A DNA stretch of 63,179 nucleotides, filler included. It is 5 parts of 5 records of this genome, joined end to end, with 100 filler letters (N's around TTAATTAATTAA, not from the genome) between each part and the next. Parts side by side here need not be neighbours in the genome. Positions count along the whole stretch, not along the records: positions 1 to 20,283 come from SRR31147125_882; 4 more parts are not named here. The stretch is one strand, 5' to 3'. Below the pieces are notes generated by a model. The model searched no databases. It was not told the DNA's origin and saw only the letters and a list, made by a program, of their open reading frames with translations. The translations under genes and the position numbers were made by a program. Positions within the stretch are counted from its first letter, which is position 1. The number at the start of each line of letters is the position of its first letter. Of this stretch, positions 1 through 17,886 are shown piece after piece.

Positions 1-20
1 TTTTGGTTGTTTTCTATCAT
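1..20 (-). CDS. 5' end of a gene truncated by the window edge, probably the terminase small subunit
   Basis: ATG at 20 (MIENNQ...) preceded by AAGGAAGTGAGTG. The product is inferred only from its position downstream of the HNH gene and cos-like region. Confidence 0.35.
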
Positions 21-146
21 TTTCACTCACTTCCTTGACATTTCGTACTTTGTCACTTTTTTCGCTCTGGATATTTTTGAAAATATTTTTTTTGATTTTT
101 TTCTTGCGCAGTGAAAGTTGTCTAGGCTGTGGGCTGTGGGACAACC

Positions 147-836
147 CTATATATTAGAATTAGATGGGGGGGTATACGTATCAAACCATTTATTGATGTA
201 ACTCATCCATTCGTCATAATATTCATGCCTTAAATCTTTCACATTGTTTAATCTTTCAATACATTCTTCTCTTGTTGTCTCCATCATGATGACTTCATCG
301 ACATTCAATCGATTAATTAAACTATCACGTTCCCAAGAAGATGCTAATGTAGCAACAATGAATGCTCTCTTCCATTTACCGTATCTTTTCTCAATGTTGT
401 CATAAAGTGTCTTACGCAATTCAAAGAGATTGTATTTAATAGCATCAGCTTTACGATAAGGATCATTGAATGTGATTGCTTCTTGTAACTTATCAAGATC
501 TACAACGATGTCATTGTTGTGTTTTACTGATTTAACAAATGAGGTCTTACCAGATAAAGGTGGTCCAAACACTAAGATAACTTCTTGGTCCTTAACAAAT
601 CTTCCATGCTCTTCGTTATGACACTGATGACAAACAACTTCAACGTTATCTTCACTTAATGTCTTTGTTGGGTTATTATAGTCATCTTCACGTAAGTAAT
701 TGATATGATGCACTTCAAGCTTCGATGTATCAGTAAATACAGTTCCACATCTATTACATATACCACCATTCTTATCGATGATATACTTCCTAAACTTACG
801 CCATTGGCTTGATGTATAGAATCTATTACCAGGCAT
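147..836 (-). CDS. Phage HNH endonuclease fused to a P-loop (AAA/kinase-like) domain, packaging-associated
   Basis: CNRC...LEVHH...CHQCHNEEH HNH motif, then GPPLSGKT Walker A. Typical position in cos phages. Confidence 0.85.
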   Translation of the reverse strand: MPGNRFYTSSQWRKFRKYIIDKNGGICNRCGTVFTDTSKLEVHHINYLREDDYNNPTKTLSEDNVEVVCHQCHNEEHGRFVKDQEVILVFGPPLSGKTSFVKSVKHNNDIVVDLDKLQEAITFNDPYRKADAIKYNLFELRKTLYDNIEKRYGKWKRAFIVATLASSWERDSLINRLNVDEVIMMETTREECIERLNNVKDLRHEYYDEWMSYINKWFDTYTPPSNSNI

Positions 837-1336
837 TATTCAAATTCACTCATTTGTCTTTTAAGTCTCAATGATTCTTTTTCCATCTTTAATCGTTGCT
901 CCTTAAGACTATGTTCAGCTGGATTATCCACCCAACGTTCCTTCTTAGGACCATCTTTAGTGAATTGTTTTAATATCTTGAATGCACTATCAGCATTAGG
1001 AGCAACCTTCTTAGTTGTCTTTTTGATCTGAACTAATACTGGTTGATTTCCTTCTTCATTTCTAACAATCTCTACAACTTCAGCATCCTTAAGCGTGTAT
1101 CCTCTAGCATCTTTTAAGATAATGTTAATCATTTCTGGAACGATTGCTTCATTACGTTTTATCTTTGCTTCAGACAATATCACATTCAATATGCCACGCT
1201 CACGTTTGTATTTATACCAAGTAGTTCTAGATACACCAAGACGTTTATATATTAAATTTTCTTTGACGCCTTCTTCGGCCCATTTTTTGATACTGTCGAG
1301 ATTTCTTTCAATATCTCGCCATTTATCGACTGCCAT
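836..1336 (-). CDS. Phage HTH protein (terminase-small-like/late operon first gene)
   Basis: N-terminal HTH IYKRLGVSRTTWYKYK; ARGY...KKVAPN motif seen in phage TerS-like proteins. Confidence 0.6.
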   Translation of the reverse strand: MAVDKWRDIERNLDSIKKWAEEGVKENLIYKRLGVSRTTWYKYKRERGILNVILSEAKIKRNEAIVPEMINIILKDARGYTLKDAEVVEIVRNEEGNQPVLVQIKKTTKKVAPNADSAFKILKQFTKDGPKKERWVDNPAEHSLKEQRLKMEKESLRLKRQMSEFE

Positions 1337-1435
1337 TTCTTCACCTAATTTCGTGCGATGAGTTCGCGTGTCTCATATAATAAAAAGGATGATTCCATTT
1401 TAATATCATGAAAAACAACCTCTCATTAATGTTTA

Positions 1436-1548
1436 TACACATACATTTTTCACATGGACTATGCTTGCGAAATAGTGGCTTTTTACAACCTTACCAGGGC
1501 GACGGAAGGAGTGATAGTCCATGTAAGAAACGCATCTGCACTTCTACA
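1436..1548 (-). ncRNA. Candidate structured phage RNA (27-bp stem closing a 51-nt loop)
   Basis: Arms 1540-1514 and 1462-1436 pair at 25/27 positions, including 4 G-U pairs that exist only on the minus strand. A sigma70-like promoter lies just upstream. Confidence 0.55.
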
Positions 1549-1554
1549 CCCTTA

Positions 1555-1583
1555 AATTTATTAAATAAAATAGTACGCGTCAA
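1555..1583 (-). promoter_or_regulatory. Sigma70-like promoter TTGACG-N17-TAAATT
   Basis: -35 at 1583-1578 and -10 at 1560-1555 with 17-bp spacing, in an intergenic region. Confidence 0.5.
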
Positions 1584-1666
1584 TGCAGTTTTGACCTATT
1601 GTCTACTTAGTGGAAATCTATTACGTAGTAATAAGATACAAAAAAAGAGCTTTTCAGCTCTTTTAT

Positions 1667-2800
1667 TTATGCATTTATGAATTCATCTTTATGCTCATCT
1701 ACAAACTTTTTAACTACATTAGTAATATTTTCATCAGTTTTATTCTTTTTTGTTCTGCATTGTACCAATTCACCATTTTTAATCTCAATAGTGAAGTATG
1801 GATCATCGACATGAGTTTTGTCTCTTAAGAATAATATAGTCGATTTATTATCAATGATTTGTTGAGCATAATGATTTAACATTGATTTTCCTAAACAATG
1901 TTGTAATATGTTGCTTTCATGCTGCATCTCTTTAATTGATTTTGGAGAAAATAAGATATATTTACCGATTTCATATTTAAGTCTTTGTTTGTTTTTGAGT
2001 TTAGAGTCTATGTTAGCCAATTTTAATCTCTTTTTTCTTTCTTCTTTTTCTAATCTTTCTCTATTAATTAAATCAATGTAGAATTGATAAGATCTATTTC
2101 TATTTAGGTGACTTTTGATTTTCTTTAACTCTTCTTTATTCATCAATTTACCTTCAATGAGCAATCCTGATGCAAGTTTAGTTGCTCCAATCTTTAATAA
2201 CAATTCATATTGATATATTTTTTCCTTGGTGGCATTTAGTAAATGAAAGTAGTTTACCTTATCGAATTTATTGATTGGTAAATATTTATACTGAGGCATA
2301 GACTTTATAAGTTTGATTGTTTTTGGATGTTGTAATCTTTGTTCATGTGAATAAAACATATTATAACCCGTATTATACATGCTCATGTATCTAACTTCTT
2401 CAGCTGGCATCATAATGTTTATATTCTTGAAAAGTCCTAATGCATATGCATATTGTTCTTGATTAATTGTATTAAAAAATAATATCCTTTGAATTTGTGC
2501 ACCTTTGATAATATCGCTATCCCATGTGTAATACATTCTCCATTCAAATAGCATAATGTAATCTCCCCATTTTTTTAAATATGTAAATCTGTTATCTTTT
2601 TTGTATTTTATGTTTTTTCTCATAAACTCTATATATGGGAATTTTCTCACAAGATAGCTATTCGCTTTTTTGTTTAATTCGAAATTGTCATAAAATCTCA
2701 TATCAGCATCTACTAAATCACGTTTGTAAAAATGAGGTCTTTGTTTATACCGTTCATCAAATTTCTTTGCAACTGCTGGCGGTAAAAAATCATAATACAT
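1667..2800 (-). CDS. PcfJ-like domain protein
   Basis: C-terminal PKSIKEMQHESNILQHCLG...ILFLR...PYFTIE...VQCR signature; follows a PcfK-like gene. Confidence 0.85.
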   Translation of the reverse strand: MYYDFLPPAVAKKFDERYKQRPHFYKRDLVDADMRFYDNFELNKKANSYLVRKFPYIEFMRKNIKYKKDNRFTYLKKWGDYIMLFEWRMYYTWDSDIIKGAQIQRILFFNTINQEQYAYALGLFKNINIMMPAEEVRYMSMYNTGYNMFYSHEQRLQHPKTIKLIKSMPQYKYLPINKFDKVNYFHLLNATKEKIYQYELLLKIGATKLASGLLIEGKLMNKEELKKIKSHLNRNRSYQFYIDLINRERLEKEERKKRLKLANIDSKLKNKQRLKYEIGKYILFSPKSIKEMQHESNILQHCLGKSMLNHYAQQIIDNKSTILFLRDKTHVDDPYFTIEIKNGELVQCRTKKNKTDENITNVVKKFVDEHKDEFINA

Positions 2801-3212
2801 TAATCATCCACTCCTAAATCAAATATTGAAATTAATTTATCTGATTGTTTTTCTTCCACCTTTTCTTTTTTGACTTTTTTAGTATTTGTTGAGGTTTCAT
2901 TGCTATTTCTAACAACTGCTCTTGCTGGTTCAGTACCTACTTCTTCATCAAGATTTTTCTTATCTTCAATAAAATAGTGAATTGCCCAGTTATACACTTC
3001 TTCATCTGAAACTGCAGTTGCACCACCTATTTGTATTTTTGATGCTTTTTTTAAAATAAAGTTACACATGTCATTAATTGATTTTGTTTCATCAAGAATT
3101 CTTTTTTGAAGATGCTCATCAGTTAATGATTCTTTCAACACATAATCAACTATTGGATTTGACCAATGTTTATCATTAATTTTTTTAATTTAGTTTCTAC
3201 TTGATTGTTCAT
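2800..3212 (-). CDS. PcfK-like (AcrIIA9-family-like) protein; probable true start 3212 with a frameshift in an A-run near 3180
   Basis: KSINDMCNFI...AVSDEEVYNWAIHYF...ISIFD motif. RBS+ATG at 3212 is out of frame by one base at an A7 run. Confidence 0.75.
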
Positions 3213-3528
3213 CGAAGTTCACCTTTTCCTTTGCTCTGTATTTATATATTTTCAATTCTAGTAATGCTGCTTTAACAGTTTCCCATTTGACATGATATCT
3301 GTTTGCTATTTTGTTAATTGACCAATTATAGTCGCAATATAATTGCTTTAATTTGTTTTTTGATATTTTAGTAAATATCTTATTCGGTTTTTTTATATGG
3401 TATTCTTTGATGTTTCTAGAAATAGTTTTTTCTGTAACTCCATGTAAGTCTGCCATTTGTTTCATTGTTAAACCGTTTTGATACTGTATTTCAAGAGTTT
3501 TCTTGTGTAACATGATTTTATTGCTCAT
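3190..3528 (-). CDS. Tandem HTH DNA-binding protein
   Basis: Two HTH-like repeats (TMKQMADLHGVTEKTISR; SINKIANRYHVKWETV). Confidence 0.7.
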   Translation of the reverse strand: MSNKIMLHKKTLEIQYQNGLTMKQMADLHGVTEKTISRNIKEYHIKKPNKIFTKISKNKLKQLYCDYNWSINKIANRYHVKWETVKAALLELKIYKYRAKEKVNFDEQSSRN

Positions 3529-4354
3529 CTAGCTCCACCTCATCAGATAACTCATATATTCTTGATATAAGTCTTTCAATATTTCTTAATTCACCTTTAT
3601 TCTTAGCTGTTTCATTGTAATAATCCTGAAGATGATTAATTGAGTAATTACTTGTAAATATTGTAAGTTTCTTGTTTGCCAATCGACTGTTTAAGATTGG
3701 TAATAGGATTTCATCTCTAAACCATGAGGATCTAAATTCAGAACCAATGTCATCAATAACAAGAATATCAGCTGTAGTTAAATCTTTAATACGTTGTTCG
3801 TTGTTATCGAAATCTTTAGCTTGTCTAGCAAAACTAGAAGTGAATAGTATAATTCCAGTTTTACCTTTGTCAGCAAATTCATTGATTATTGCATTTGCTA
3901 AATATGTTTTTCCTATTTGATAAAGATCAGAATGAATATATAACCCTCTAGTTTCTTTACCATCTAAGACGTCTTTAATCATAGCTTTAGCAAATAATAA
4001 AGATTTGCTACGTTTATCTGTTGTATCCCAAAATTTAGATAATGATGCTTTTAAATCCCAAATGTCATCACCTACACTTTTAAAAGCAGCAATTCTTTTA
4101 TCAAGTTTAATTTTGTCTTTTGTAGGTATGTAAGATATCGACCATCCAATTTCGGTTTTGTTAAGTTTAACAGTGTATCCATCAAAATCTTTATTTCTCA
4201 TATTTAGATAATTCACAGCTATCATAACATCCGACATATTTTTAGTATTTACATCTGAAGTCTCTTCATCTTCTAATGCTTTTTTAATCAAGTTCTTCAC
4301 TGACTCTTTGTCTTCTTGGTATGTATTTTTTAGATGATTTCTTAAGTTCTCCAT
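3518..4354 (-). CDS. DnaC/DnaI-like helicase loader ATPase
   Basis: GLYI..IGKTYLANAI Walker A variant, ILVIDDIGSE Walker B, TIFTSN, RLISRI. Confidence 0.85.
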   Translation of the reverse strand: MENLRNHLKNTYQEDKESVKNLIKKALEDEETSDVNTKNMSDVMIAVNYLNMRNKDFDGYTVKLNKTEIGWSISYIPTKDKIKLDKRIAAFKSVGDDIWDLKASLSKFWDTTDKRSKSLLFAKAMIKDVLDGKETRGLYIHSDLYQIGKTYLANAIINEFADKGKTGIILFTSSFARQAKDFDNNEQRIKDLTTADILVIDDIGSEFRSSWFRDEILLPILNSRLANKKLTIFTSNYSINHLQDYYNETAKNKGELRNIERLISRIYELSDEVELDEQ

Positions 4355-5057
4355 TGTTACCCTCCTTGTTATTTGAATGACTTTCCCATGTGATAATCTT
4401 TTGTTTCCAATTTTTTACTTGCTTCCCATTAGAATCAACCCAACCAGCTACATTAAAGTAATCAAAGAACTTTTTAGGATCTACACTATTTTTTCTTTGT
4501 TTACAATACTCTTCAACATCTTTTAATGTTGGTGGCACAAATTTCTTTTTAGATGATTTATTAGATGATTTAGAGGTGATTTCTTCTGTATTATCTTCTT
4601 TATTAACTTTACTTAACTTATCTTTACTTAACTTATATTGTGTAAACCGTTGGTCTACCAACTGTCTACCATCATCATTTTGTTGTACTTCCTCGCTAAA
4701 CAAATCGTATGGTATTTCTTTTAATTTATAAGCTTTGTTTTCTTTTAAATCAAGCATTGCAAGTTCATTTTGATATACTGTTGGTTTGTATCTATCATTT
4801 CTAATATAGTTATGCATTCGCCAATGTTTAATAACTATAACTCCATTTTCAAACACAATAATATATTTTTTCGCTATTAATAGATCCATATCATTTTTTG
4901 ATGCACCAACTATTCTCATTACTGAAAATGGGTTTTTTACAAATCCGTCATCATCACCGTCCATATTCAATTGAAAATATAATTCTCGTGTTGATGTTGG
5001 CATATTGAGAAAACTATCGCTTCTCACTATTTGATCGTTAAACATTCTTCTTGCCAT
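4284..5057 (-). CDS. Phage replication initiator (replisome organizer)
   Basis: MARRMF...SDSFLNMP...LYF..DDDGF N-terminus; FVPPTL..V..YC...KNWKQ C-terminal domain. Confidence 0.85.
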   Translation of the reverse strand: MARRMFNDQIVRSDSFLNMPTSTRELYFQLNMDGDDDGFVKNPFSVMRIVGASKNDMDLLIAKKYIIVFENGVIVIKHWRMHNYIRNDRYKPTVYQNELAMLDLKENKAYKLKEIPYDLFSEEVQQNDDGRQLVDQRFTQYKLSKDKLSKVNKEDNTEEITSKSSNKSSKKKFVPPTLKDVEEYCKQRKNSVDPKKFFDYFNVAGWVDSNGKQVKNWKQKIITWESHSNNKEGNNGELKKSSKKYIPRRQRVSEELD

Positions 5058-5278
5058 TATTCATCACCTTCCAATTCTTTTTTTGTTAGTTTTTTATGAC
5101 AACTGCGACAGTATGCTGTTTTTTGTTCTTCTCGATAGCTTATGCTATCGTACATATCACCGTTAATACCACTGTCTTCGTCATAAGAACCATCACCGTT
5201 ATAATGCGTACTAATTTTCCCATAAACAGGCGTGTATTTATAATACCCATCGGTGTTTCCACATTTAGTGCATTTCAT
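5057..5278 (-). CDS. Small zinc-ribbon phage protein
   Basis: CTKC...CRSC; translationally coupled. Confidence 0.65.
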   Translation of the reverse strand: MKCTKCGNTDGYYKYTPVYGKISTHYNGDGSYDEDSGINGDMYDSISYREEQKTAYCRSCHKKLTKKELEGDE

Positions 5279-5510
5279 GAGTTTCTATCTCCTTATATTT
5301 TTCGTAATCTTCAATGAATTCTACTTCATCTATGCTATACCATATTTTTATTCTTGTGTTGTGATAATAGTCATAAGGCTCATGTTTATGAAATCTTGCG
5401 TTATTCATATCACGCATATATGCATGGCAATCTTTTTTAGTTTTGAATAGTTTTTCCTCAACAGTACCTTCACTATTAAACGCACCGCTCGTAATCATAT
5501 ACATTTTCAT
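5265..5510 (-). CDS. Hypothetical phage protein
   Basis: Coupled ORF in the operon with an RBS. Confidence 0.6.
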   Translation of the reverse strand: MKMYMITSGAFNSEGTVEEKLFKTKKDCHAYMRDMNNARFHKHEPYDYYHNTRIKIWYSIDEVEFIEDYEKYKEIETHEMH

Positions 5511-6181
5511 TCTTTAGCCCCCTTTAATCTTATTTTTTTATCTTTAATTTCAAAAATAGAAGATGCAGTGTTTCTCATTACACTGATAAAACTTCCTTTG
5601 TTTGAATAATGTTTGAGTATTTCAGGATATAAAGTATCAATTAAATCCTCAATTAAACATTCATTGTTTGGCATTACACTTAAAATATCTTTTGTCCTAT
5701 TGATAATGATTTGCCTTTCTGTTAATGTTTCTCCTGTTTTTGCTCCAGCTGTTTTTTGTTTATTAAAACTTTTGCAAGCTCTATTAAATACTTCAAAGAC
5801 ATTTCTTACATGATTTTGTCCTCTTTCAAAAACATCAATTTTATGATTTTGTGTAGAAGTATTGCAAATCATTAGACCAATGTCTTTTCCTGTATAGCTT
5901 AGAAGATCTAATTTTTCATGATCGCTATGAGATAGTCCTTTAAATCCGTTATCTTTTGGAAAAGCAATATACACTTTTGCATCAGGATAATAATACTTAT
6001 TCTTTAAAGCTTGTAGTATAACTTTTACATTAAAATTCAATTTCATTTCAATGAGGACAACTTCACCTGTTTTTCTGTTTATACCAACAACATCAATATC
6101 ATTAACTTCTTGATATACTTCATAGCCCTTTTCTTCAAGATATTTTTTAATAGGTAAGAATAACTCTGTTTCTTTATTCAT
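5507..6181 (-). CDS. PD-(D/E)XK-like protein (DUF2161-like)
   Basis: ETELFLPIKKYLEEKGYEV..EV..IDVVG...IEMKLNFN..VILQA pattern. Confidence 0.7.
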   Translation of the reverse strand: MNKETELFLPIKKYLEEKGYEVYQEVNDIDVVGINRKTGEVVLIEMKLNFNVKVILQALKNKYYYPDAKVYIAFPKDNGFKGLSHSDHEKLDLLSYTGKDIGLMICNTSTQNHKIDVFERGQNHVRNVFEVFNRACKSFNKQKTAGAKTGETLTERQIIINRTKDILSVMPNNECLIEDLIDTLYPEILKHYSNKGSFISVMRNTASSIFEIKDKKIRLKGAKE

Positions 6182-7061
6182 TCCCTTTACTCCAATCTAA
6201 TTTTTGCCCACAAAAAGGACAATATTTGATTTCTACAACTTTGTTAGCTAAACAAGTATCTAATAACTTAACTTCTTTTGTTATAGTTTGTTTACATTTC
6301 GGACATTCATAATCAACAAATCCACTAATTTCAATTGTATGTGAATACAATTCAGGTTTCATAGGCTTTTGAATTATGTTGGACTCACAATATTTAATAA
6401 ACTTTGATAAATCATCAGATAGATTCATACCTTTGACATCGCGAGATAGGTTTGATTTTTCAAATAAATATATTTCAGCTTCTTTTGCTTTAATCAATAG
6501 ATCGTTTTTATCTGATACTGTCTCTTTATTCATTTTTTCCTCGTTCTGGACCATTATTTTGTCTTCAAGTTTTTTTATTTGCTCATCTTTTTCTAAGGTG
6601 GATGATTTTAAAAGAGTTAACTCCCCCTTCAATTTAGCTATCTTATCTTTTAATAATTCATTTTCCGCAGATAATTTATTTAATTTATGGTTTGCAGTAC
6701 TGAGTTTAGAATTTTTGACTTCTTCACGTTCTTTTAACTCAATTATTTTAGGAGGAAGTTTTTCTAATTCATGTATATATATAAGTAACTCTTTTCTTTT
6801 TGGAAGACCTTTGACTGTTAAATTTAATTTAACTTTTACTTGAGTAATTCCATTTAGCCAATCACCAGTTGCATCTCTTGCTGTTATTTCGATTTTTAGA
6901 CATCTTTTTAAAAGCAAATACCGATAGTTTTTGCAAATTTCAAGTTCCTTGTTTTTTAGTATAATATCTGTTATATATATGTCTTTTTCGTTGTAAACAC
7001 TGGCTTCTATTATTTGAGCATCAATTTTTTTTAATGTTTGAAATACTGTTTCTTTTAGCAT
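6174..7061 (-). CDS. Coiled-coil protein with C-terminal zinc ribbon
   Basis: Heptad-rich middle; CPKC...YCPFCGQKLDW. Confidence 0.7.
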   Translation of the reverse strand: MLKETVFQTLKKIDAQIIEASVYNEKDIYITDIILKNKELEICKNYRYLLLKRCLKIEITARDATGDWLNGITQVKVKLNLTVKGLPKRKELLIYIHELEKLPPKIIELKEREEVKNSKLSTANHKLNKLSAENELLKDKIAKLKGELTLLKSSTLEKDEQIKKLEDKIMVQNEEKMNKETVSDKNDLLIKAKEAEIYLFEKSNLSRDVKGMNLSDDLSKFIKYCESNIIQKPMKPELYSHTIEISGFVDYECPKCKQTITKEVKLLDTCLANKVVEIKYCPFCGQKLDWSKGNE

Positions 7062-7078
7062 AAAATTTTACCTCTTTC

Positions 7079-7384
7079 CTAAACTCTAATTTCAACTTCG
7101 TGTTTGATGAAATCAGATTTTAAAGTATCTATACCTACTCCAAGGAAACTACCATCAAGAAGATTTCTTAATGCAATTTCATGGTCAATGATTAACCAAT
7201 TATCATCAATGAAAAAAAGTTCCCCTTTTTCAATTGTTCTGTATTTATCAGTACTAAATCCATCATCATCTACTAGAGTGACAGTAAATGTCTCTTTGTT
7301 TTCATACAATATTGTTTTTCTAACATCTGGTAACATGCTACTTTTTATATCTGAAATTTGTTGTTGATCTATTTCTAAAACCAT
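7079..7384 (-). CDS. Hypothetical phage protein
   Basis: ORF with GAGG RBS. Confidence 0.65.
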   Translation of the reverse strand: MVLEIDQQQISDIKSSMLPDVRKTILYENKETFTVTLVDDDGFSTDKYRTIEKGELFFIDDNWLIIDHEIALRNLLDGSFLGVGIDTLKSDFIKHEVEIRV

Positions 7385-7414
7385 TTTTAATACCTCTTTC
7401 CTTTGCTCTGGATT

Positions 7415-7554
7415 AATCTTACATAACTACTACAACTGTAAGATTTTTCTTTTGTATTTAACATACTGACTTGATCGCTTAATAACCACTTCAAGTCCTT
7501 TTTAATTAAATTGTGATGATTAAAAAACTTTACCGTAACCGTATTTGTCGTAAA
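7415..7554. repeat. Three-subsite res/dif-like element, copy 1
   Basis: ATCTTACATAA-CTACTAC-AACTGTAAGAT (7416-7444), GACTTGA..TCAAGTC (7468-7497) and TTTACCG..CGTAAA (7529-7554); homologous to 10809-10948. Confidence 0.7.
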
Positions 7555-7558
7555 ACTG

Positions 7559-8302
7559 TCACTTATTTACGAGTGTTTTATTCAATATTAGATCAGGAAA
7601 CTTACTTGCGTAATCTTTGATATATCTTGATTCAATTTCGTTTAATTTCGTTAAATCATGTACAACTTCTAGTATTTCAAACTTATAATTTTCAATATCA
7701 TTAACTGGAAATCTCTCACTTTTTAAATGTTGCCCCCATCTGAAAATTGGAAGTGAATTTGTTTGTCCAATGTACATTTCTCCTGACTTCTTTTTAGTTA
7801 TTTTATAAATGCAACCCCAATCGTAAGAACCTCTGTCTATGTATTCATTAGGATTTATTCCATCATGAAGTTTCAAGTATTCGTTATAAAGCTTTCCATG
7901 ATGTTTTTTTCTACATTCAATACAGCAATAATCATAAGTCCTATATCTATCTATATCTCTATGTTTAACTTCAACAATATCTCTAGGTCTATATCTTTGT
8001 TGATATATAAACTTTTTACCACACCACTCACATGTAGTTTCATGAACTTGATTTTTTTTAAAGTCATTTTTATTTGTTGATTTGGTAACAACAACACAAT
8101 ATATGTCACCATCAACCATGCTTTTAGTTCTTCGGAATTTTATGGACTCTCCATACATTTCCTTAATTGTTTCTTTGAACATCTCATATGAATCAATTAC
8201 GATGGTATTTTGTTCAATTAAAGTTCTTGGTTGAGACAATCCCCAAACAGTTTCTTCAATGGAACCACCCACTTCATATATTCTATATTCACAATAAATC
8301 AT
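7559..8302 (-). CDS. Zn-binding protein with C-terminal GIY-YIG nuclease domain
   Basis: CEWC...YCCIEC; GCIYKIT...MYIGQT...RW.QH...E...LN. Confidence 0.75.
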   Translation of the reverse strand: MIYCEYRIYEVGGSIEETVWGLSQPRTLIEQNTIVIDSYEMFKETIKEMYGESIKFRRTKSMVDGDIYCVVVTKSTNKNDFKKNQVHETTCEWCGKKFIYQQRYRPRDIVEVKHRDIDRYRTYDYCCIECRKKHHGKLYNEYLKLHDGINPNEYIDRGSYDWGCIYKITKKKSGEMYIGQTNSLPIFRWGQHLKSERFPVNDIENYKFEILEVVHDLTKLNEIESRYIKDYASKFPDLILNKTLVNK

Positions 8303-8763
8303 CAGTCTGTTCTTATGCCTAGAATTAAGATAAATATTCCCTTTACTACATCTTCATAAATTAAAAGCAAATCCTTGATTTTTAATTTACTTTTAATGTG
8401 CCATTCATTGAATTTTAACCCGAATGATGCAAATGCATTATCAACCTTCTTCTTATCGAATTTTGCGCCATCAATTAAATATCCAGGAATACTTTGTAAA
8501 TCACTGTCTAGTTCTATATTTTCAACTTCTTTAAGGTCCTCATTCTTTGGGATAATTTTTGCAGTATTTGGGTAACTGCCTTCGTATAATTTACCAGTCA
8601 TTAAGTTGACAAGAATAGGATCTTTAACTGTCACTTGATTTTTCTCTATTAACAATACATATGAATCAGTGAATATGATCTCATCATTGATATAAGCTAC
8701 ACATTGAAGTATAGGTCTTTTACTTTGCTTTCTTGCAAATCTTTTAACTACTTCTAATTTCAT
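8302..8763 (-). CDS. Hypothetical phage protein (weak resemblance to a beta-clamp middle domain)
   Basis: RPILQCV...FTDSY...GSYPNTAKIIP resembles DnaN domain II motifs. Confidence 0.55.
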   Translation of the reverse strand: MKLEVVKRFARKQSKRPILQCVAYINDEIIFTDSYVLLIEKNQVTVKDPILVNLMTGKLYEGSYPNTAKIIPKNEDLKEVENIELDSDLQSIPGYLIDGAKFDKKKVDNAFASFGLKFNEWHIKSKLKIKDLLLIYEDVVKGIFILILGIRTD

Positions 8764-8789
8764 TTTTAATTCCTTCCTTTGCTCTGGAT

Positions 8790-8993
8790 TTATTTAAAAC
8801 TCGAATCAATACGTTTTAACATTAGAAATACACAAATAAGTGACAATACAATTGCAATCCCAATTACAATCAATAAAATAAATGCAATATTAAACAATCC
8901 TGTGATAGCAGCTATGACACTCAAATAAAATGCACCAATTGATACTAAGAATAGTATCCAAAAGAAAATTAATAACCAATCTAATTTTTTCAT
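8790..8993 (-). CDS. Small two-TM membrane protein
   Basis: Two long hydrophobic segments. Confidence 0.65.
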   Translation of the reverse strand: MKKLDWLLIFFWILFLVSIGAFYLSVIAAITGLFNIAFILLIVIGIAIVLSLICVFLMLKRIDSSFK

Positions 8994-9394
8994 TTACCTT
9001 TCCTTTCATCCGATAATTGTTTTAAAACATGTACAATATCAGAATTACACCAATAATCAAACATTGTTGAATCAGCTCTAAATTCTTTATATGTGTAGCC
9101 AGAATACTTAATTAAGCTTAAATATTGATCTTTGTAATTTGTTACAGTCACAATATAAGTTTTAGCGTTATTCAACCTATAAAAATGGAATTTTAAATAC
9201 TTTTTGTTGATTTCTCTAACCTTTTTTAATTGATGGATAAAAACTATCGAATTTGCTTTATACAGTTGTTTAGTTTTTACTGACATGTACTGGCCAAGTT
9301 CTTTATGTATTAGAATAACTACGTCATTAAATGTTTTTGAGCTGTTAGTATTATGTATTGTAGCTTCGAATAAACTTCCTACTTCTTTAATCAT
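8990..9394 (-). CDS. Hypothetical phage protein
   Basis: Operonic ORF with RBS. Confidence 0.65.
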   Translation of the reverse strand: MIKEVGSLFEATIHNTNSSKTFNDVVILIHKELGQYMSVKTKQLYKANSIVFIHQLKKVREINKKYLKFHFYRLNNAKTYIVTVTNYKDQYLSLIKYSGYTYKEFRADSTMFDYWCNSDIVHVLKQLSDERKGK

Positions 9395-9405
9395 GATTAT
9401 ATTCC

Positions 9406-9960
9406 TTAGTATGTTTCAATTATTCTAGGTTCTCCTAGATAATCACAAACTAAATCACTAAAGAATTTCAATGCCATTCCTGATCTATAAACTCTATGAT
9501 CTTTCACAATTTCTTTATTCCCAAATCCATAAATAACTGTTACTGAATCACTTATAGAAAGCCAATTTTTTTCAATAGCGAAAGATCCTAATTTATTTTC
9601 CATTTCTTCTTGAATTTCTTCATCAGATATACTGTTTATGAAATCATCAGCATTTTCTAGTTTCACACTTAATGATGAAGATTGGTAGTTTAACGAATGG
9701 CTTCCTTCATTATAAATAAGTGAAAACCAAATACTATCAAAAGTGTTCAAATCAATTTTTTCAATGAACTCATAATCACTTACTTCAATAAAATCTTTGG
9801 TCTTATCACTAAAATCAATAAAATCTAATAATATAGATGGTTCATCATCGCTACTTGAAATTGAATCCATACCCATTCGAATAATTGCATCATGCTTTTC
9901 TGCTATATCTTGAAGTTTTTTTAAAGTCTTCATGTGACTTGAGTTAAATGTAATATTCAT
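9406..9960 (-). CDS. Acidic hypothetical phage protein
   Basis: Operonic ORF with GAGGTG RBS. Confidence 0.65.
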   Translation of the reverse strand: MNITFNSSHMKTLKKLQDIAEKHDAIIRMGMDSISSSDDEPSILLDFIDFSDKTKDFIEVSDYEFIEKIDLNTFDSIWFSLIYNEGSHSLNYQSSSLSVKLENADDFINSISDEEIQEEMENKLGSFAIEKNWLSISDSVTVIYGFGNKEIVKDHRVYRSGMALKFFSDLVCDYLGEPRIIETY

Positions 9961-10139
9961 GACTTCACCTCTTCAAAATAGTCCCAAAAAATACTTTTTA
10001 TGAAAACCCCAATTTCTGAACCACAAATCATACCGACTTGATCTTCTTTATCGTTGACTGCTACGATCTCAGCTATTCTTCCTGATGAGAGTTCTCTCAC
10101 TTTCATCCCTTTAACAATTTTCTTTTGATTTTCATCCAT
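9957..10139 (-). CDS. Small hypothetical phage protein
   Basis: ORF after the repeated RBS motif. Confidence 0.6.
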   Translation of the reverse strand: MDENQKKIVKGMKVRELSSGRIAEIVAVNDKEDQVGMICGSEIGVFIKSIFWDYFEEVKS

Positions 10140-10178
10140 GTGATTACTTCCTTCCTTTGCTCTGGATTTTTTTATTTT

Positions 10179-10790
10179 TTAATCGTTTGCTTCACATTGA
10201 AGTTCATATTCAAACTGATTTGTATAATTAAACACACCAAATCTATAATATTTTTTCCCTTTTTCATAGATTGGAAAGTCTAGGTTATAACCTTTTGCTG
10301 AAACATAACCTTCAATAAATGCTTGACATTCGTCTAAACTTCCTACTTCTTCAGCAATTATTACTTGCTTAAAATCTTCTAATGGGATTGTTTTATCACC
10401 ACCTGTAGCAATGTCTTTAGCTATCATAACGTAGTAAGTATTTAATTTTTCCTGGCATTGACTACATAAATCTTCTTCTACCCAATAACATCCACCTTTG
10501 CAGCTGTGAAGATCATCACAACCACAAACTCTACATGTTTGCTTATAATGTTTCATTTCTTCACCTTGTTTAATGATTCCCATAATAGTATCTGCATAAG
10601 GCTCATCAAGATTAACAACAATATATGAAGGGTTTGGTTCTTTACCATTAGATTTTCTAATCTTTGCAACTGCATCGAATGCAATACCTAGATGTGATTG
10701 ATTCATAAAATCTAATTTTTTGACATCTTCACGTTTCATAACCATATGTGTGTTCGGCTTTTCTTCAAATTTATATTTAGTTTTTTCCAT
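10179..10790 (-). CDS. Hypothetical phage protein with Cys-rich zinc finger
   Basis: CRVCGC...CKGGCYWVEEDLCSQC; AAGGAGG RBS. Confidence 0.7.
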   Translation of the reverse strand: MEKTKYKFEEKPNTHMVMKREDVKKLDFMNQSHLGIAFDAVAKIRKSNGKEPNPSYIVVNLDEPYADTIMGIIKQGEEMKHYKQTCRVCGCDDLHSCKGGCYWVEEDLCSQCQEKLNTYYVMIAKDIATGGDKTIPLEDFKQVIIAEEVGSLDECQAFIEGYVSAKGYNLDFPIYEKGKKYYRFGVFNYTNQFEYELQCEAND

Positions 10791-10808
10791 GTGATTTCCT
10801 CCTTGAAT

Positions 10809-10948
10809 AAATCTTACATAATCACTGAAACTGTAAGATTTTTATATTTTTTTGATACATTGACTTTTCCGCTTATTAAGGCTTTCAAGTGTTAATTCAT
10901 TTGATTATTATTGTTAAAAAACTTTACCGTGACATGTTTTCTCGTAAA
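10809..10948. repeat. Three-subsite res/dif-like element, copy 2
   Basis: ATCTTACATAA-TCACTGA-AACTGTAAGAT (10811-10839), GACTT..TCAAGT (10862-10890) and TTTACCG..CGTAAA (10923-10948). Confidence 0.7.
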
Positions 10949-11016
10949 TTACGTTAATTGATGCTATATTGTAAATAAAAACATGGGGAGTTAATTATGT
11001 TTTTTTCTGTTCAAAT

Positions 11017-11457: not shown

Positions 11458-11470
11458 TTTTTGTTTCTCC

Positions 11471-11867: not shown

Positions 11868-12488
11868 TCTTTTTTCTCCTTGATCTGGCTTCTATAATCT
11901 TAGCGACTAACAAGCCTGTTTCAGTTAATTCTTTATCTTTACTTAATAAGTTGTTTTTATTCAAAATTGCAAGTTCTCTTCTCGTAATTAATTCAAGATT
12001 ATCAATGCTACAATTTTGACGATTACCATCTTTAAATATAAGCACATGTGTTTTAGAATCATATGGTCCATTGACGTCCTCCCAGATGATACGATGCTTT
12101 TGTTTCCATTTGTTTGGATCAGCAATCTTGATATAAACATACCCATTGGTTTTCATTATTTCAGTACCTACAGGTAAATATTGATGTGGTCTATTTCCTT
12201 TTTTAAACCAACCCTTTTCACTACCAGGAGCACACCAACCTTTTTACCTTTGTTGTGAGATACATGACCCTTTTTAAACTCTGTAGATTTACTGAAACGC
12301 ATACCTTTTTTGAAAGTTGCATCAATTCCGCTTTTAATCCCATATCGATATCTACAATATTGAATTTGGTTTTCAGTAAATGTAGTATCAAAATGTTCAT
12401 TGAATAGCTTAGTTATCTCATCATTAAAACGGTGATGTGATATTTCTTTTAGATATTCAATCATCTCAGGAGTATACAATTTTTTCAT
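11857..12488 (-). CDS. HNH endonuclease (HNH_3 type), split by an apparent frameshift
   Basis: N-part with FKKG repeats (12168-12488); C-part NGYVYIKI..WKQKHRIIWE..FKDGNRQNCSIDNL (11857-12156). Confidence 0.75.
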
Positions 12489-13135
12489 TTATGGACTCCT
12501 CCAAGGTAAACACCAGCTCTTTCTTTCTCAGCATCATTGATATCCCACATGACATATAGTTGTGTAATATAAATATCGTCATGATTATACATTTTCATTA
12601 ATGTAGCCCAATTACCACCATTTTTAATATACTGAAAGCCAAATGTCTTTCTTAAACTATGTAATCCAAATCTAGTTGAAATACCTACTTCATTTGCAGC
12701 TTTAGATACAATAGAGTGAGCTTGTTGACGTGTAATAGGATTAACATATTTTTTTCCACCTTGTTTTTTCTTTTGACCAAGAAACAAATAATCATATTTT
12801 GTAAGGTGATTTCTTTCTACATATGATTTTATGTCATTATGCAATTCTTTGTTTAATCTAAAGTTTTGCATTTTACCAGTTTTGCTTTCTTTTATATGGA
12901 CATACCCTTTGATAAGATCAGACACTCTAAGTTGTAATAAATCTCCTGCCCTAAATGCTGTATTCAAACCAATCAAACATAACATCCAATTTCTATCAGC
13001 TTGATAAATCTTGACTGGAGTTTCAGCAAGCTCTCTTTTCTTTAGAAAATAAATCATCATACGTTCAATGTCTTTAGGATCTTTTAAAGGATGCGTTTGT
13101 TTTTGCCCTCCAAAAGATTTTATTCTTCTAGCCAT
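12485..13135 (-). CDS. Short tyrosine recombinase (catalytic domain only)
   Basis: R (AFRAGDLL), K (ESKTGK), HSLR, NH and Y (TQLY) catalytic set; no N-terminal arm-binding domain. Confidence 0.9.
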   Translation of the reverse strand: MARRIKSFGGQKQTHPLKDPKDIERMMIYFLKKRELAETPVKIYQADRNWMLCLIGLNTAFRAGDLLQLRVSDLIKGYVHIKESKTGKMQNFRLNKELHNDIKSYVERNHLTKYDYLFLGQKKKQGGKKYVNPITRQQAHSIVSKAANEVGISTRFGLHSLRKTFGFQYIKNGGNWATLMKMYNHDDIYITQLYVMWDINDAEKERAGVYLGGVHK

Positions 13136-13191
13136 AAATACCTCCTTATTTAAGTTTTAAATTGTTTTTACTATCAATTCGATTAATTACC

Positions 13192-13476
13192 CTATATTTT
13201 ATTTTTCTTTAGAAAACGAATGATTTCAGTTTGTTTAACAGGTAATCTATCTAGTTCCAAATCTGATACATAATAAATATCTTTATCATGATGGATTTTG
13301 TTAGCTTTAAAGTATCCTATAAATCTCCAGCCACTTGATGTCCATATATCTAGTTTCACAAAAGGTGTCTTATTCAATACTGAAATTCTAAATGGATTTT
13401 GATCTCTAACTATTTCCCAATTATTAGGATTTGATACATATAGTTTTCTATCATTATCGTTTTTTAATGTTTTCAA
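13192..13476 (-). CDS. Hypothetical phage protein
   Basis: Coupled ORF. Confidence 0.6.
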   Translation of the reverse strand: MKTLKNDNDRKLYVSNPNNWEIVRDQNPFRISVLNKTPFVKLDIWTSSGWRFIGYFKANKIHHDKDIYYVSDLELDRLPVKQTEIIRFLKKNKI

Positions 13477-13940
13477 AATGGAACACCTTCCGATTCTTCA
13501 ATTCTTTTGACTTGCTCATCAAATAGATACATAAATGATTGAGGAACTTTTAGTCCGATGTCACTAAGCTTTACAGGATTTTTAAGACATCTAAAATCAT
13601 TCACTTTAATGAATCTAGCGTCTTTGTTATGACTAACATCTCTTAATACTTTGATTGATATTGCTGATTCTTCGACTAACTGTAACAGTGTTTTTGATAC
13701 AACTCTTTGATTGATCGCTTCTTTTTTTACAATTTGTGGATCATGCGTCATCGTAAATACAGCAGCAATATAACCTGAATAAGGATGTTTTTTCTTTTTA
13801 GTGACATGTAAGAAAATCTTTGCTGGTAATTTTAACTTTTTAAAATCGTAAGAACGTATCTCATGTTTCTTTACCCCTGAATTCATTAAATCGTAATATT
13901 CTGGATGAATAGGTAATACTAGTGCGTTATATTTATTCAT
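13473..13940 (-). CDS. ASCH/PUA-like domain protein
   Basis: LPIHPEYYDLMNSGVKKHEIRS...PQSFMY. Confidence 0.75.
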   Translation of the reverse strand: MNKYNALVLPIHPEYYDLMNSGVKKHEIRSYDFKKLKLPAKIFLHVTKKKKHPYSGYIAAVFTMTHDPQIVKKEAINQRVVSKTLLQLVEESAISIKVLRDVSHNKDARFIKVNDFRCLKNPVKLSDIGLKVPQSFMYLFDEQVKRIEESEGVPF

Positions 13941-14010
13941 TATTTGTCCTTTCCAGCATTTTCAAGTATAATATGAGGTGCAGCTTTCCTTTGCTCTGGA
14001 TTTGTTGCAA

Positions 14011-14469
14011 TTAAAGGTACATCAGGTCGCACTGATTGTGCCTTTTCTTTTGCTTTTGTCTTTCCTCATAGAACTTTTTAAAATATGCATAATCTTCAAT
14101 AATCTTGTTTTGTACAATGAACTGCTTAACTTTATACAAAAACCAATCATTCATATTTTTATAACCAGCACGTCTAAAGTTTTTTTGGTTTAACACCTTT
14201 TTAAACTTCTTAGGTAGTTTAATGTGTACATGATAACTACTAAAATCTTTTCTAATTCTTCTTTTCTTGTCATGTAGATCTAATTCAATTTCATCAAATA
14301 GATCATATCTACTAACCTTTAAGACTTCTTCAATTCTTAGTAATTTATCTCTTGTTGGAAGAGCCATTCCATTTTCAATATAAGAAATAAGTGGTTCAGG
14401 CATTGATATTGCCATTGCAAGATCACTTTGTCTGTATCCTCTTCTACGTCTAATTTTTTTAAGCCACAT
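14011..14469 (-). CDS. XRE-family HTH regulator
   Basis: LKKIRRRRGYRQSDLA...ISYIENG. Confidence 0.85.
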   Translation of the reverse strand: MWLKKIRRRRGYRQSDLAMAISMPEPLISYIENGMALPTRDKLLRIEEVLKVSRYDLFDEIELDLHDKKRRIRKDFSSYHVHIKLPKKFKKVLNQKNFRRAGYKNMNDWFLYKVKQFIVQNKIIEDYAYFKKFYEERQKQKKRHNQCDLMYL

Positions 14470-14818
14470 TTTCGGATCCCTCGTTTAACCATCGCGTTTG
14501 CGATTCATAAGAATGATAGTCAATACCTTTTTCCTCACACCATTTTTTATAACTAGGTATACTGACTTCTCTAAACTTGTTTCTTAATCGATTAGCATAT
14601 TGACTGATTTCTCCATCGGCTAATCCCATTTTTGAGAGTTTGAAACAAAATGCTGAAATGATATTGTTTTTCTCTCTTCTCAACATGTCAGTGATTTCTT
14701 CTGACTCTTTTAAAATTCCTAAAAATAAAATAGCCTCTACAATTTGCTTATTTGCATCATCGAAGAGACTATTGATTTTACTTTGTGCTAGTCGCATTTG
14801 CACATTGTTTTTTTTCAT
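14459..14818 (-). CDS. Hypothetical phage protein
   Basis: Start MKKNNVQ after GGAAGGAG. Confidence 0.6.
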   Translation of the reverse strand: MKKNNVQMRLAQSKINSLFDDANKQIVEAILFLGILKESEEITDMLRREKNNIISAFCFKLSKMGLADGEISQYANRLRNKFREVSIPSYKKWCEEKGIDYHSYESQTRWLNEGSENVA

Positions 14819-14930
14819 TAGTTTTCTCCTTCCGATTTTCCTTTGCCCTGGAATTGGATAATTTAGTTTTTTGGTCCCAATCAATTGCTCGCTGAACGAT
14901 ACTGATTGATTTTAATTTGTTAAATAGCAT
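14778..14930 (-). CDS. 50-aa ORF absent from the ORF track (MLFNKLKSISIVQRAIDW...)
   Basis: AAGGAG RBS within the repeated motif; fills the gap after cro. Confidence 0.45.
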   Translation of the reverse strand: MLFNKLKSISIVQRAIDWDQKTKLSNSRAKENRKEKTNEKKQCANATSTK

Positions 14931-14963
14931 CGATAATATTCTCCTTTGCTCTGGTAAATGAAT

Positions 14964-15167
14964 TTATCTTCTAGTTTCAAACAAGTACTTTAAATCATTG
15001 TTTTCACCAATAGATGCTGATATTTTTGTTGCTTCTTCAATTGTGATCTGAGATTTTCCAGTGAGTTTAGAAGATACAGTTTGAATGTGGATTCCTAAAA
15101 TACTAGCTAACTTTTTTCTTGTGATTCCACGTCTTTTTAATTCAGCTTCAAGATTTGGATAATACAT
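14964..15167 (-). CDS. Cro-like HTH repressor
   Basis: MYYPNLEAELKRRGITRKKLA; divergent from the CI-like gene. Confidence 0.85.
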   Translation of the reverse strand: MYYPNLEAELKRRGITRKKLASILGIHIQTVSSKLTGKSQITIEEATKISASIGENNDLKYLFETRR

Positions 15168-15240: not shown

Positions 15241-15353
15241 GGGATTTTCTTACTTTTTATGCATATTCGTATATTTTTTATGCAATTATATATATAATTC
15301 GTTGTATTTATAAGTTTTATTTGGTAAAATCACACTATAAGGAAGTGATTAAT

Positions 15354-16457: not shown

Positions 16458-17886
16458 TTGATGAATAAAGCAGTTATTTATGCTAGGTATTCATCTTCTT
16501 CTCAAAACGAGCAATCTATAGAAACTCAAATTGATATTTGCAAAAATTACGCTAAGGAAAATGACATACTTATTGTTGATTATTATATAGATAAAGGAAT
16601 GACTGGGACAAATGCTAATCGTCCTGGTTTCCAGAAAATGATTATGGATTCATATACTAGTAAATTCAATTATTTAATAGTATATAAGTTTGATCGTTTC
16701 GCAAGAGATGAATATGATGATATTTATTATGAAAAAATCCTAAATGACAACGGTGTTAGTAGATTGTCAGCAACTGAGCCTACACCTAAGGATGAATTTT
16801 CAAGTAAATTGATAAAAGCTATTACAAGATTAAATAATGAAAACTATTCACGTGTATTGTCAGAGCGTGTCAATGCTGGTCTTTCTAAAAATGTAGAGAG
16901 AGGACTAATGGTTGGTGGATCTGTGACATGGGGATATAAAATGATAAATAAAAGATATGTTATAGATGATGAAACTGCTCAATACGTTAAATCCATCTTT
17001 GACTGGTATTACTCAGGATTAACTGGAAAAGAAATAGCAAATAAGTTAAATTTAAGTGGTGTGAGAAATGCTAAAGGAAAAAATTCAGTTTCAGCACATA
17101 TTTAAAATACTGAGAAATAAACGCTATATTGGAATATTCACCTATAGAGGAATTGAACACAAAGATTATTTACCTTCTATCGTTTCTAAAGATATATTCT
17201 ATAAAGTCCAAGATAAATTATCTAAATCTAGAAATTTCCAACGTAATCGATCAACTAAGACAAAATATAGTTTAACTGGTAAACTTTTTTGTGGAGAGTG
17301 CGGTCATGCTATGTCAGGATATTCTGGGACAGGACGTCATGGAAAAAAATTTCATTACTATCGATGCAGAAACCCAAAATGTAGTAAGTCAAATGAAAAG
17401 AAAAAAGAACTTGAATCCTTGATATTCGATAAAACATCTGAAGAAATAATTCATAGCAACAAACTTGATGGTTGGATTGAAGACTCTATTAAAGCTTATA
17501 ATAGTCAATTTGCAACACTAGAGACACTATTAAAAAATATTCAAAAAGAATTATTAAAGATTAAAAGAGAAATTGACAATGTAATGACAGCTATTAAGAT
17601 GGGTATTATTACAGATTCAACAAAAATAGAATTGGAATATCTAGAAGGTAAAAAGAGAGAGCTCGAGTTAGAATATATAAAAAAAGAGGCTATTAAACCT
17701 CAGGCACCAAATCCACAACTCATAAAAAACTGGTTTCTTCACTTCAACACTATCGATCCAACACAGGAAGAAATCAACGATGTATTTGATGTGTTAATTA
17801 GCAAAATCATAAAATCAAATGATACAATAGAAATATATTTCCAAATAGGAAATCACCATGTGGAGGTAGATCTCCCGCTGGTGTAG
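16458..17886 (+). CDS. Large serine integrase, split by an apparent frameshift near 17080-17092
   Basis: YARYSS..Q..SIE.Q, DRFAR resolvase domain; recombinase domain; LFCGECG...YYRC zinc ribbon; coiled coil. Confidence 0.9.

Follow-up and report, generated by a model that had tools for sequence, protein, structure and literature searches.

A conserved, undescribed hairpin RNA at the head of the late operon of Acholeplasmataceae prophages, with a loop antisense to a tag at early ribosome-binding sites

This study concerns a 63-kb stretch of DNA (hereafter, the window) that contains, in its left ~17 kb, a prophage oriented along the minus strand, and in particular a hairpin encoded in the gap of 330 nucleotides (nt) between the early and late genes of this prophage (1666-1337). 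The hairpin is a real, conserved and previously undescribed phage RNA element, which recurs in four other Acholeplasmataceae prophages, namely in genomes G001, G172 and G167 and, in diverged form, in G061. Part of its loop is complementary to a short motif, the tag, that precedes several of the phage's own early genes, and at one position the loop and a target have changed in concert between phages. On balance, we favor the reading that this late-leader hairpin RNA acts in trans, by antisense pairing on the tagged early ribosome-binding sites. Judged from sequence, the relation between the loop and tagged start regions is the conserved principle, and the preferred gene is not conserved. The leader region consists of the following features:

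1643..1664, minus strand: terminator-like hairpin with a T-run, closing the early operon after the PcfJ-like gene (terminator scan; an equivalent is present in locus L001 and visible in G061)
1611..1631, minus strand: box TTACTACGTAATAGATTTCCA, 5' of the -35 (invariant block of alignment A1)
1555..1583, minus strand: promoter-like TTGACG-N17-TAAATT (promoter scan, 9/12 matches)
1435..1541, minus strand: long hairpin, with stem 1541-1514 paired to 1462-1435 and loop 1513-1463 (51 nt) (folding, pair counts, covariance model R1)
1494..1511, minus strand: antisense seed in the 5' half of the loop, i.e., CUCCUUCCG (complement of plus 1503-1511), UC, and GCCCUGG (complement of plus 1494-1500)
1375..1425, minus strand: second, weaker hairpin with a U-rich run, before the first late gene (consensus fold)

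An earlier note on this DNA had proposed a TTGACG-N17-TAAATT promoter on the minus strand, followed by a 27-position stem that relies on four G-U wobbles. The promoter was recovered by the promoter scan at 1583-1555, and the stem (1540-1514 with 1462-1436) has, as minus-strand RNA, 21 Watson-Crick pairs, 4 G-U pairs and 2 mismatches, so that 25/27 positions pair; as plus-strand RNA it has 21 Watson-Crick pairs, 1 G-U pair and 5 mismatches. An extra G-U pair (1541/1435) lengthens the stem. Folding of both strands, which the note had suggested as a check, was better than shuffles on the minus strand only: the 123 nt of 1430-1552 (minus) fold with -37.0 kcal/mol (z -3.57, 0/200 shuffles as good), a 201-nt stretch has z -1.87 on the minus strand vs -0.09 on the plus strand, and model R1 assigns 106 bits to the minus strand and 29 to the plus strand. 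An RNA-level element on the minus strand at the early/late boundary is thereby supported. The absence of a described family also stood, with 0 matches in an Rfam cmscan of the whole window at gathering scores and, for 1300-1700 at E<=10, 12 weak matches that were all far below gathering and included none to C4. The proposed pseudoknot between a 5' AGGGUG and the CGCCCU of the loop was not supported: its pairing exists in the window, but the relatives have lost or never had the 5' partner (alignment A1). A search for tRNA and tmRNA genes (ARAGORN) gave no match. The hairpin was also considered, and rejected, as a peptide gene: sense ATG codons open 29, 10 and 28 codons for amino acids (aa) in differing frames, the antisense strand offers ATG-TAA (window, G167) or 13 aa (G001), and no open reading frame (ORF) is kept on either strand.

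The promoter-like site lies 60 nt past the terminator-like hairpin (1664-1643, minus), and its -35 block AAAACTGCATTGAC is invariant in 4/4 leaders (alignment A1). The box TTACTACGTAATAGATTTCCA is a near-palindrome centered on TACGTA and, by its sequence, possibly the site of a regulator. Within the loop, GUCGCCCU is predicted to be open (probability unpaired 0.89-0.99) and is therefore a plausible nucleation site, and CCUUCC sits in a predicted mini-helix of 6 base pairs (bp) with GGUAAGG. The second hairpin, with its U-rich tail, follows ~25 nt past the first and is found at the same place in 5/5 phages; its single folds reach z -1.1 to -1.95 (z -2.58 for the G061 equivalent), the terminator scan calls none, and its sequence suggests a possible attenuator or weak terminator. 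The RNA may end as a short transcript like lambda 6S or StxS, may be released from the leader as a cleavage fragment, or may plainly be the 5' end of the late mRNA. No RNA run is listed as containing the window, and two RNA runs with the same species label had 0 reads on it, which is no test of transcription.

The relatives were reached by several routes. The first late protein pointed to an Acholeplasmataceae metagenome-assembled genome, blastn against 172 genomes of the family recovered the leader in three of them (G001, G172, G167), and a pattern search for the box with <=2 mismatches in the 172 family genomes gave the same three only. A profile of the 119-aa early protein described below (gene orf119) was matched in 4/307 genomes of the order, the fourth being the distant G061, whose prophage is syntenic from the cro-like gene through the HNH+AAA gene. 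Contig C16 of G167 (34,647 nt; loci L043, L044, L002) carries the leader RNA, the tag and orf119, and its ends share a 127-nt direct overlap, from which it can be taken as a circular, apparently complete phage genome of ~34.5 kb. Model R1 retrieved only G001 and G167 from 151 genomes sampled from the order, with no further convincing member; a match in G102 (24.5 bits) was rejected because of its many non-standard pairs. No match was obtained when 1-3000 (megablast) and the intergenic region (blastn) were compared with phage GenBank records, neither one protein scan nor two DNA patterns had a match in viral contigs, and a first DNA pattern had 0 matches in metagenome contigs. A second metagenome-contig pattern yielded seven stretches, which were rejected as chance matches since 0/7 fit R1. 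More distant phages were reached through the terminase-small-like protein, which was found in six of 400 genomes sampled from the class. In G179, the leader hairpin is short, palindromic and without strand asymmetry (-21.3 vs -22.5), and neither a tag nor a clear target is present; G453 and G390 have no leader hairpin. The device is therefore confined to a subgroup.

In all five phages (5/5), the hairpin is placed between the promoter-like site and the first late gene. The close relatives keep a module of terminator, box TTACTACGTAATAG(A/G)TTTCCA, block AAAACTGCATTGAC and hairpin (alignment A1), although the gene that follows differs: the first late gene of G001 is of the window type, that of G172 and G167 is another, and the break falls ~40 nt before the start codon. 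G172 combines the G001 hairpin with the G167-type first late gene, i.e., the leader has been kept while flanking genes were swapped. No change is seen in the inner 10 bp of the stem, and the outer stem varies in sequence but preserves its structure. Pairing was retained in 93.3% of the pairing cells in three distinct sequences, vs 33-47% with the partners slid; two stem pairs have changed on both sides (C-G/U-G/U-A and G-U/C-G) and five on one side only. G061 is not in these pair counts, as MAFFT did not place its 3' arm. Stronger evidence nevertheless comes from this phage. At the same place, G061 has its own terminator, the box CATTACGTAGTAATG, then TTGACACGT...TAATTT, and then a 28-bp hairpin whose stem sequence is wholly different from that of the close phages and which folds with -31.6 kcal/mol (z -4.42), against -21.4 (z -2.15) for the other strand.

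The loop complement CCAGGGCGACGGAAGGA (plus 1494-1510) agrees at 14/17 positions with the 17-mer CCAGAGCAAAGGAAGGA, as the earlier note had observed when it described the loop as antisense to a start-associated motif, and the relation is kept in the four other prophages. With <=2 mismatches, the 17-mer has four minus-strand copies (7395, 8771, 10149, 13983); the total of five matches compares with 0.08 expected, and 0/100 shuffles reach five. Its 13-nt core CCAGAGCAAAGGA has five exact and two one-mismatch copies, all on the sense strand and all within 3239-14954 (the early region), whereas the remaining ~48 kb, host part included, hold 0 copies at <=1 mismatch. That the motif stands ahead of several early start codons was likewise confirmed, since 5/7 core copies lie 11-20 nt before a start codon, so that the tag would supply or adjoin the Shine-Dalgarno sequence. 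Copies of the tag include the following:

14942..14954, minus strand: core copy CCAGAGCAAAGGA, 11 nt before the start of a 50-aa ORF
13983..13999, minus strand: tag copy, 46 nt before the start of a 155-aa gene (13940..13473)
10149..10165, minus strand: tag copy as ribosome-binding site of a 60-aa gene (10139..9957); duplex with the loop -21.4
8771..8787, minus strand: tag copy as ribosome-binding site of a 153-aa gene (8763..8302); duplex -21.1
7395..7411, minus strand: tag copy as ribosome-binding site of a 101-aa gene (7384..7079); duplex -17.9
3227..3239, minus strand: one-mismatch copy ACAGAGCAAAGGA; no ORF of >=45 aa starts within 80 nt

G001, G172, G167 and G061 each have 5-6 sense copies of the tag, ahead of partly different genes, and the sole inverted copy in each phage is the hairpin loop. 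The window and G061 have one tagged gene in common, i.e., the 153-aa gene 8763..8302 and its 37%-identical homologue. In the genomes of G001 and G172 (1.7 Mb each), the pattern CCAGAGCAN{1,4}GGAAGG occurs twice each, once in the loop and once, in sense orientation, at the ribosome-binding site of an early gene in that prophage. As a separate observation, the tag copy before the 155-aa gene runs on (13983-13950, minus) into a conserved AAAACTGCACCT..TATTATACTTGAA in all five phages, a stretch that is longer than any other tag context. In addition, the interval that separates the HNH+AAA gene from the late gene after it (window 1-146, minus; L001 ~4250-4310) contains, in both phages, the shorter variant CCAGAGC(G/A)AAAAA followed by GTCAAGGAAGTGAG, so that the first half of the tag also occurs outside the early genes.

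Pairing was assessed with RNAduplex, in scans of each 60-nt segment on both strands of 35-63 kb per phage with the 5' part of the loop (27 nt); RNAcofold opened the stem (difference in free energy -3.8), was unfit for loop-target kissing, and was replaced by duplex plus opening energies. The loop reads CUCCUUCC-GUC-GCCCUGG in the window phage, CUCCUUCC-UAA-UGCUCUGG in G001 and G172, and CUCCUUCC-AA-UGCUCUGG in G167, and the homologous stretch of G061, UCCAUCCUUUGCACUG, matches the exact antisense of the tag at 14/16 positions. The loop of the window phage is thus a poorer match to the tag than the loops of the relatives. The best predicted target in the window is this site:

14816..14851, minus strand: start of the 119-aa gene orf119, with CCAGGGC (14851-14845), CGGAAGGAG (14834-14826) and AUG (14818-14816)

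The window duplex comprises 9+7 bp, GCCCUGG pairing with CCAGGGC and CUCCUUCCG with CGGAAGGAG, and its second helix spans the whole Shine-Dalgarno sequence. The start region of the orthologous 119-120-aa gene is the top non-self duplex of the loop in 4/4 close phages (window -30.2, G001 -29.7, G172 -31.0, G167 -25.4 kcal/mol), on backgrounds of about -10 +/- 4, that of the window scan having mean -10.8 and standard deviation (sd) 4.2 over 8334 segments. The segment GGAAGGAG occurs twice in the 63-kb window, once in the loop complement and once as the orf119 Shine-Dalgarno sequence. One position has changed in concert: the pair CCAGGGC/GCCCUGG of the window is CCAGAGC/GCUCUGG in the other three phages, i.e., the window-specific C of the loop stands opposite the window-specific G of the target, and U opposite A in the others. 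Cognate pairs exceed non-cognate ones by 4-9 kcal/mol (window vs G001/G172). When loops were shuffled against 26 early start regions, -30.2 was reached in 2/1000 and the best-four sum in 4/1000. Opening costs of 4.75 (loop) and 5.02 (target) kcal/mol leave a net -20.4 kcal/mol. The two arms are spaced 2-3 nt apart in the loop vs 8-11 nt in the target, a difference that base pairing would presumably tolerate and a protein site would not. Over a background of -6.4 (sd 2.8), the best predicted sites of G061 are the tagged 155-aa gene (-18.1) and an early gene of 146 aa. The start region of the latter contains AAAGGAUGGAAA, to which the 12-nt apical loop is exactly complementary, and this 12-mer occurs three times in the 2.2-Mb genome (the loop, the 146-aa gene site and one elsewhere).

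The suggestion that one RNA could occlude many early genes at once fits the relatives better, where second strong sites are predicted (G001 -28.9, G172 -27.1), than the window, whose drifted loop favors one gene (-30.2 vs -21.4, -21.1 and -17.9). Two further checks that the earlier note had named were covered: among relatives, the stem has compensatory changes and one loop/target position changes on both sides, but a second apparent one fails in G167; against shuffled controls the orf119 site stands out.

Two side observations concern the loop. Locally G+C-rich segments at ~37200-37290 and ~27900-27975 give the strongest unrelated duplex scores with it. Further, in G001, G172 and G167 a late gene of 126-138 aa, orthologous among these phages and preceded by a gene whose product ends in ..PKAAA, also has a start region complementary to the loop: in G167:C16 at ~25325 (minus) it is AUUGGAAGGAGU, with 12 bp to ACUCCUUCCAAU, G001:C1 has UAGGAAGGAGU at ~181570, and G172:C1 has UAG-A-GAAGGAGC at ~780770, and the bases flanking the match track each phage's own loop. 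The window covers only ~1.3 kb of the late region and ends short of this gene; if the late-gene pairing in G167 and G001 is true, the start region of the 126-138-aa late gene of the window phage would be expected to read (G)ACGGAAGGAGU.

The mechanism that we propose would operate as follows. The promoter-like site past the early terminator would start the transcript of the late (packaging) operon, of which the first ~110 nt would form the 26-28-bp hairpin, exposing a loop whose 5' half is antisense to the tag CCAGAGCAAAGGAAGGA on several early genes of the phage itself. The resulting RNA may persist as the 5' leader of the late mRNA, be set free through a cut in the long stem, or terminate at the weak second hairpin, and in any of these forms its loop could pair in trans with the tagged ribosome-binding sites. 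The main site in the window phage would be the 119-aa gene by cro, with 7 bp on CCAGGGC and 9 bp over the Shine-Dalgarno sequence CGGAAGGAG; pairing would begin at the open GUCGCCCU and then unzip the CCUUCC/GGUAAGG helix. Masking of the Shine-Dalgarno sequence would block ribosome entry, and the tagged early proteins would be turned down when the promoter fires. Alternatively, the RNA could provide a second layer of immunity, if the promoter were active in the lysogen. What the data show is the sequence, the strand-specific fold, its conservation, the complementarity and one concerted change of loop and target; that the RNA is transcribed, where it ends, that it pairs in the cell and in which direction it acts are what we infer here.

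Several findings weigh against trans pairing or against parts of it. The predicted -10 is weak (TAAATT in the window, TAATTT in the relatives), and the promoter scan makes no call at the TAATTT of the relatives (L001). The anti-Shine-Dalgarno arm is largely paired inside the loop (probability unpaired 0.10-0.27). Conservation of the stem pairs was equaled by shuffled controls in 38-120/500, a weak result for three sequences, and the covariation statistics are thin because there are only four distinct hairpin sequences. The clean trans-compensatory event comprises one position only. A second apparent covariation, at the base before GGAAGG (C opposite loop G in the window, A opposite loop U in G001 and G172), was rejected, as G167, for which U had been predicted, has target C and loop A, i.e., a mismatch; moreover, in G167 the cognate loop (-25.4) has no advantage over the G001 loop (-25.5). 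The orf119-like start region of G061 is outranked by other sites (-13.9, rank ~82/5326), and the target thus varies within the family. In the window scan, duplexes of up to -27.6 are formed with unrelated GC-rich host segments, and the other tagged sites of the window (-21.4, -21.1, -17.9) are barely above the best of 48 crude host start regions (-19.8). Finally, any pyrimidine-rich CUCCUUCC will match strong Shine-Dalgarno sequences.

Next after trans pairing comes an explanation that we regard as unlikely: the hairpin may be a purely cis-acting leader of the late operon, i.e., a site for RNase III processing or stabilization, or for attenuation or antitermination together with the second hairpin and U-run, its likeness to the tag arising from an anti-Shine-Dalgarno-like composition. 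The place of the hairpin between promoter and first late gene in all five phages agrees with this, as do the stem of 26-28 bp, long enough for RNase III, the second hairpin with its U-rich tail kept at the same place, and a loop that seems to resemble the 3' end of 16S rRNA. It would leave unexplained, however, the CCAGRGC arm, which is not Shine-Dalgarno-like and yet is conserved and changes with its target, as well as the genome-wide rarity of the joint pattern. Moreover, a cis role is compatible with a trans role.

We consider it less probable still that the tag and its inverted copy are protein sites or recombination linkers of gene cassettes, one of which the hairpin carries by chance. 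The tag does lie ahead of different genes in different phages, and 3/13 of the cassette joints listed (7078>7411, 6491>7393, 7391>7787) fall at the copy 7395-7411, for which reason the tag may double as a recombination linker. The other copies, however, all point one way at ribosome-binding sites, which argues for a role in mRNA, the arm spacing differs between the loop (2-3 nt) and the best target (8-11 nt), and a site acting as DNA would leave unexplained why the flanking stem depends on G-U pairs of one strand. It was also observed that contigs of two public runs contain variants, 2-6% diverged, with gains and losses of gene cassettes, whose joints include window 7555-8304; related phages thus lack or swap single genes, e.g., 7384..7079 and 8302..7559.

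That a real hairpin carries a loop whose complementarity to an unrelated tag is coincidental seems very improbable: the sample is small (four distinct sequences), matches between a pyrimidine-rich loop and purine-rich ribosome-binding sites arise easily, and targets were picked post hoc after scans, yet shuffled loops reach the observed energy in 2/1000, the joint pattern is unique in whole genomes, and the relation recurs in G061 with its diverged hairpin.

The protein encoded at the predicted main target belongs to no Pfam or PHROG family and has three homologues among 5.8 billion clustered proteins:

14459..14818, minus strand: orf119, a 119-aa early gene just downstream of the cro-like gene (15167..14964)

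Its AlphaFold2 model is all-helical and of high confidence, with a predicted local distance difference test score (pLDDT) of 88.9, and a Foldseek comparison of this model with the PDB gave no match at E<=0.001; weak helical matches (syntaxin, ribosomal protein bS20) were set aside as not meaningful. The distribution of orf119, i.e., 4/307 genomes of the order, parallels that of the leader RNA.

The leader and its predicted targets belong to a prophage with a 13-kb early operon, in a window with a G+C content of 35%, i.e., AT-rich. Its further features are as follows:

15234-17886, plus strand: repressor-like gene and serine recombinase, on the strand opposite to the early operon
15167..14964, minus strand: cro-like helix-turn-helix gene, followed by the 13-kb early operon
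3141..2800, minus strand: PcfK-like gene, ahead of the PcfJ-like gene
2800..1667, minus strand: PcfJ-like gene, the last early gene, directly before the terminator-like hairpin
1666-1337: gap of 330 nt between early and late genes
836..1336, minus strand: first late (packaging) gene, terminase-small-subunit-like, 166 aa (PHROG 309)
836..147, minus strand: HNH+AAA gene, second in the late operon (Pfam HNH and AAA_33)

The serine recombinase is split into two overlapping ORFs (16458..17105 and 17068..17886 on the plus strand; region 16458-17886), which points to a frameshift, or an error of sequencing, in the integrase. Within the early operon lies a tyrosine-recombinase-like gene (13135..12485). 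Just past the prophage, a run of N at ~20290-20380 (translated as X) breaks two converging ORFs and is read as masked or unassembled sequence.

For P1, P7, P4 and P22, it is textbook knowledge that a phage controls its own early genes by antisense RNA. The closest mode of action is that of the c4 RNA of P1 and P7, which pairs at two sites (a'/b'), is processed by RNase P, is grouped with the P4 CI RNA and the N15 CA RNA, and is presumably located in the operon of its target, just upstream of it. c4 is described as a structured phage RNA with loops complementary to the surroundings of the ribosome-binding site of a gene in its own regulatory region, the translation of which it blocks, with a specificity that differs between related phages (PMC12197685, PMC8546580). 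The leader resembles c4 in that its loop is complementary to the ribosome-binding region of the phage's own gene (9+7 bp, orf119). It is not a member of the Rfam C4 family: there is no likeness in sequence or structure and no Rfam C4 match even at E<=10. Furthermore, the leader lies at the head of the late operon, ~13 kb from its predicted target, the tag is multi-copy, and the host is a wall-less relative of the Firmicutes rather than an enterobacterium.

StxS and the lambda 6S RNA are short transcripts that run from the late promoter pR' to tR', and StxS reportedly is a trans-acting regulator of host mRNAs. The leader RNA is alike in lying at a predicted late promoter, 5' of the late genes, and in being possibly ended by a leader terminator; it differs in that its predicted targets are the phage's own early genes and that its leader terminator is weak and a candidate only. 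In phage T4, RegA and RegB are proteins that shut off early mRNAs at ribosome-binding sites. The temporal shut-off of a set of early messages via a signal at the ribosome-binding site is common to both cases, but the proposed effector here is an RNA. Literature searches on Acholeplasma prophage small RNAs found no such RNA for phages of Mollicutes or their relatives, and those on phage antisense RNAs aimed at early-gene Shine-Dalgarno sites found nothing pertinent.

The tag itself is best compared with the start-associated sequences (SAS) of Cluster K mycobacteriophages. SAS consist of an asymmetric 13-bp repeat that stands a few nt ahead of the start codons of genes of different families, in one orientation, in the non-structural half only, and near-absent from the host; four Cluster K phages have a single reverse-oriented copy that is not tied to a gene start, and the authors leave open whether RNA or protein reads the repeat (PMC3203893). 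The tag is similarly asymmetric, with 7/7 copies in sense, 5/7 at 11-20 nt before a start, confinement of the core copies to the early region, with only ~1.3 kb of the late region in the window, and 0 copies in the host part. Its sequence is CCAGAGCAAAGGA(AGGA) and not GGGATAGGAGCCC, i.e., it is the same kind of element in another family and host, and its inverted copy lies in the loop of a conserved hairpin, whereas for SAS no partner RNA is known to have been described.

What is new beyond these known cases is that the RNA is the leader of the late operon, which would tie early-gene shut-off directly to late transcription, and that its predicted target is a repeated, phage-private tag at ribosome-binding sites. 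A wider idea, which we put forward tentatively and with more doubt than belief, is that of a phage-wide translational address system, in which one RNA from the late promoter would read a private tag on chosen early genes, and possibly on one late gene, to time their translation; the reverse SAS copy of Cluster K phages might then represent a repeated invention of this device, which would give phages a general, RNA-based means of temporal control. Tags of the SAS type have been known since 2011 without a known reader (PMC3203893), and the leader RNA is a concrete candidate for such a reader. Lastly, the locus gives a first handle on a 119-aa early protein that has almost no relatives.

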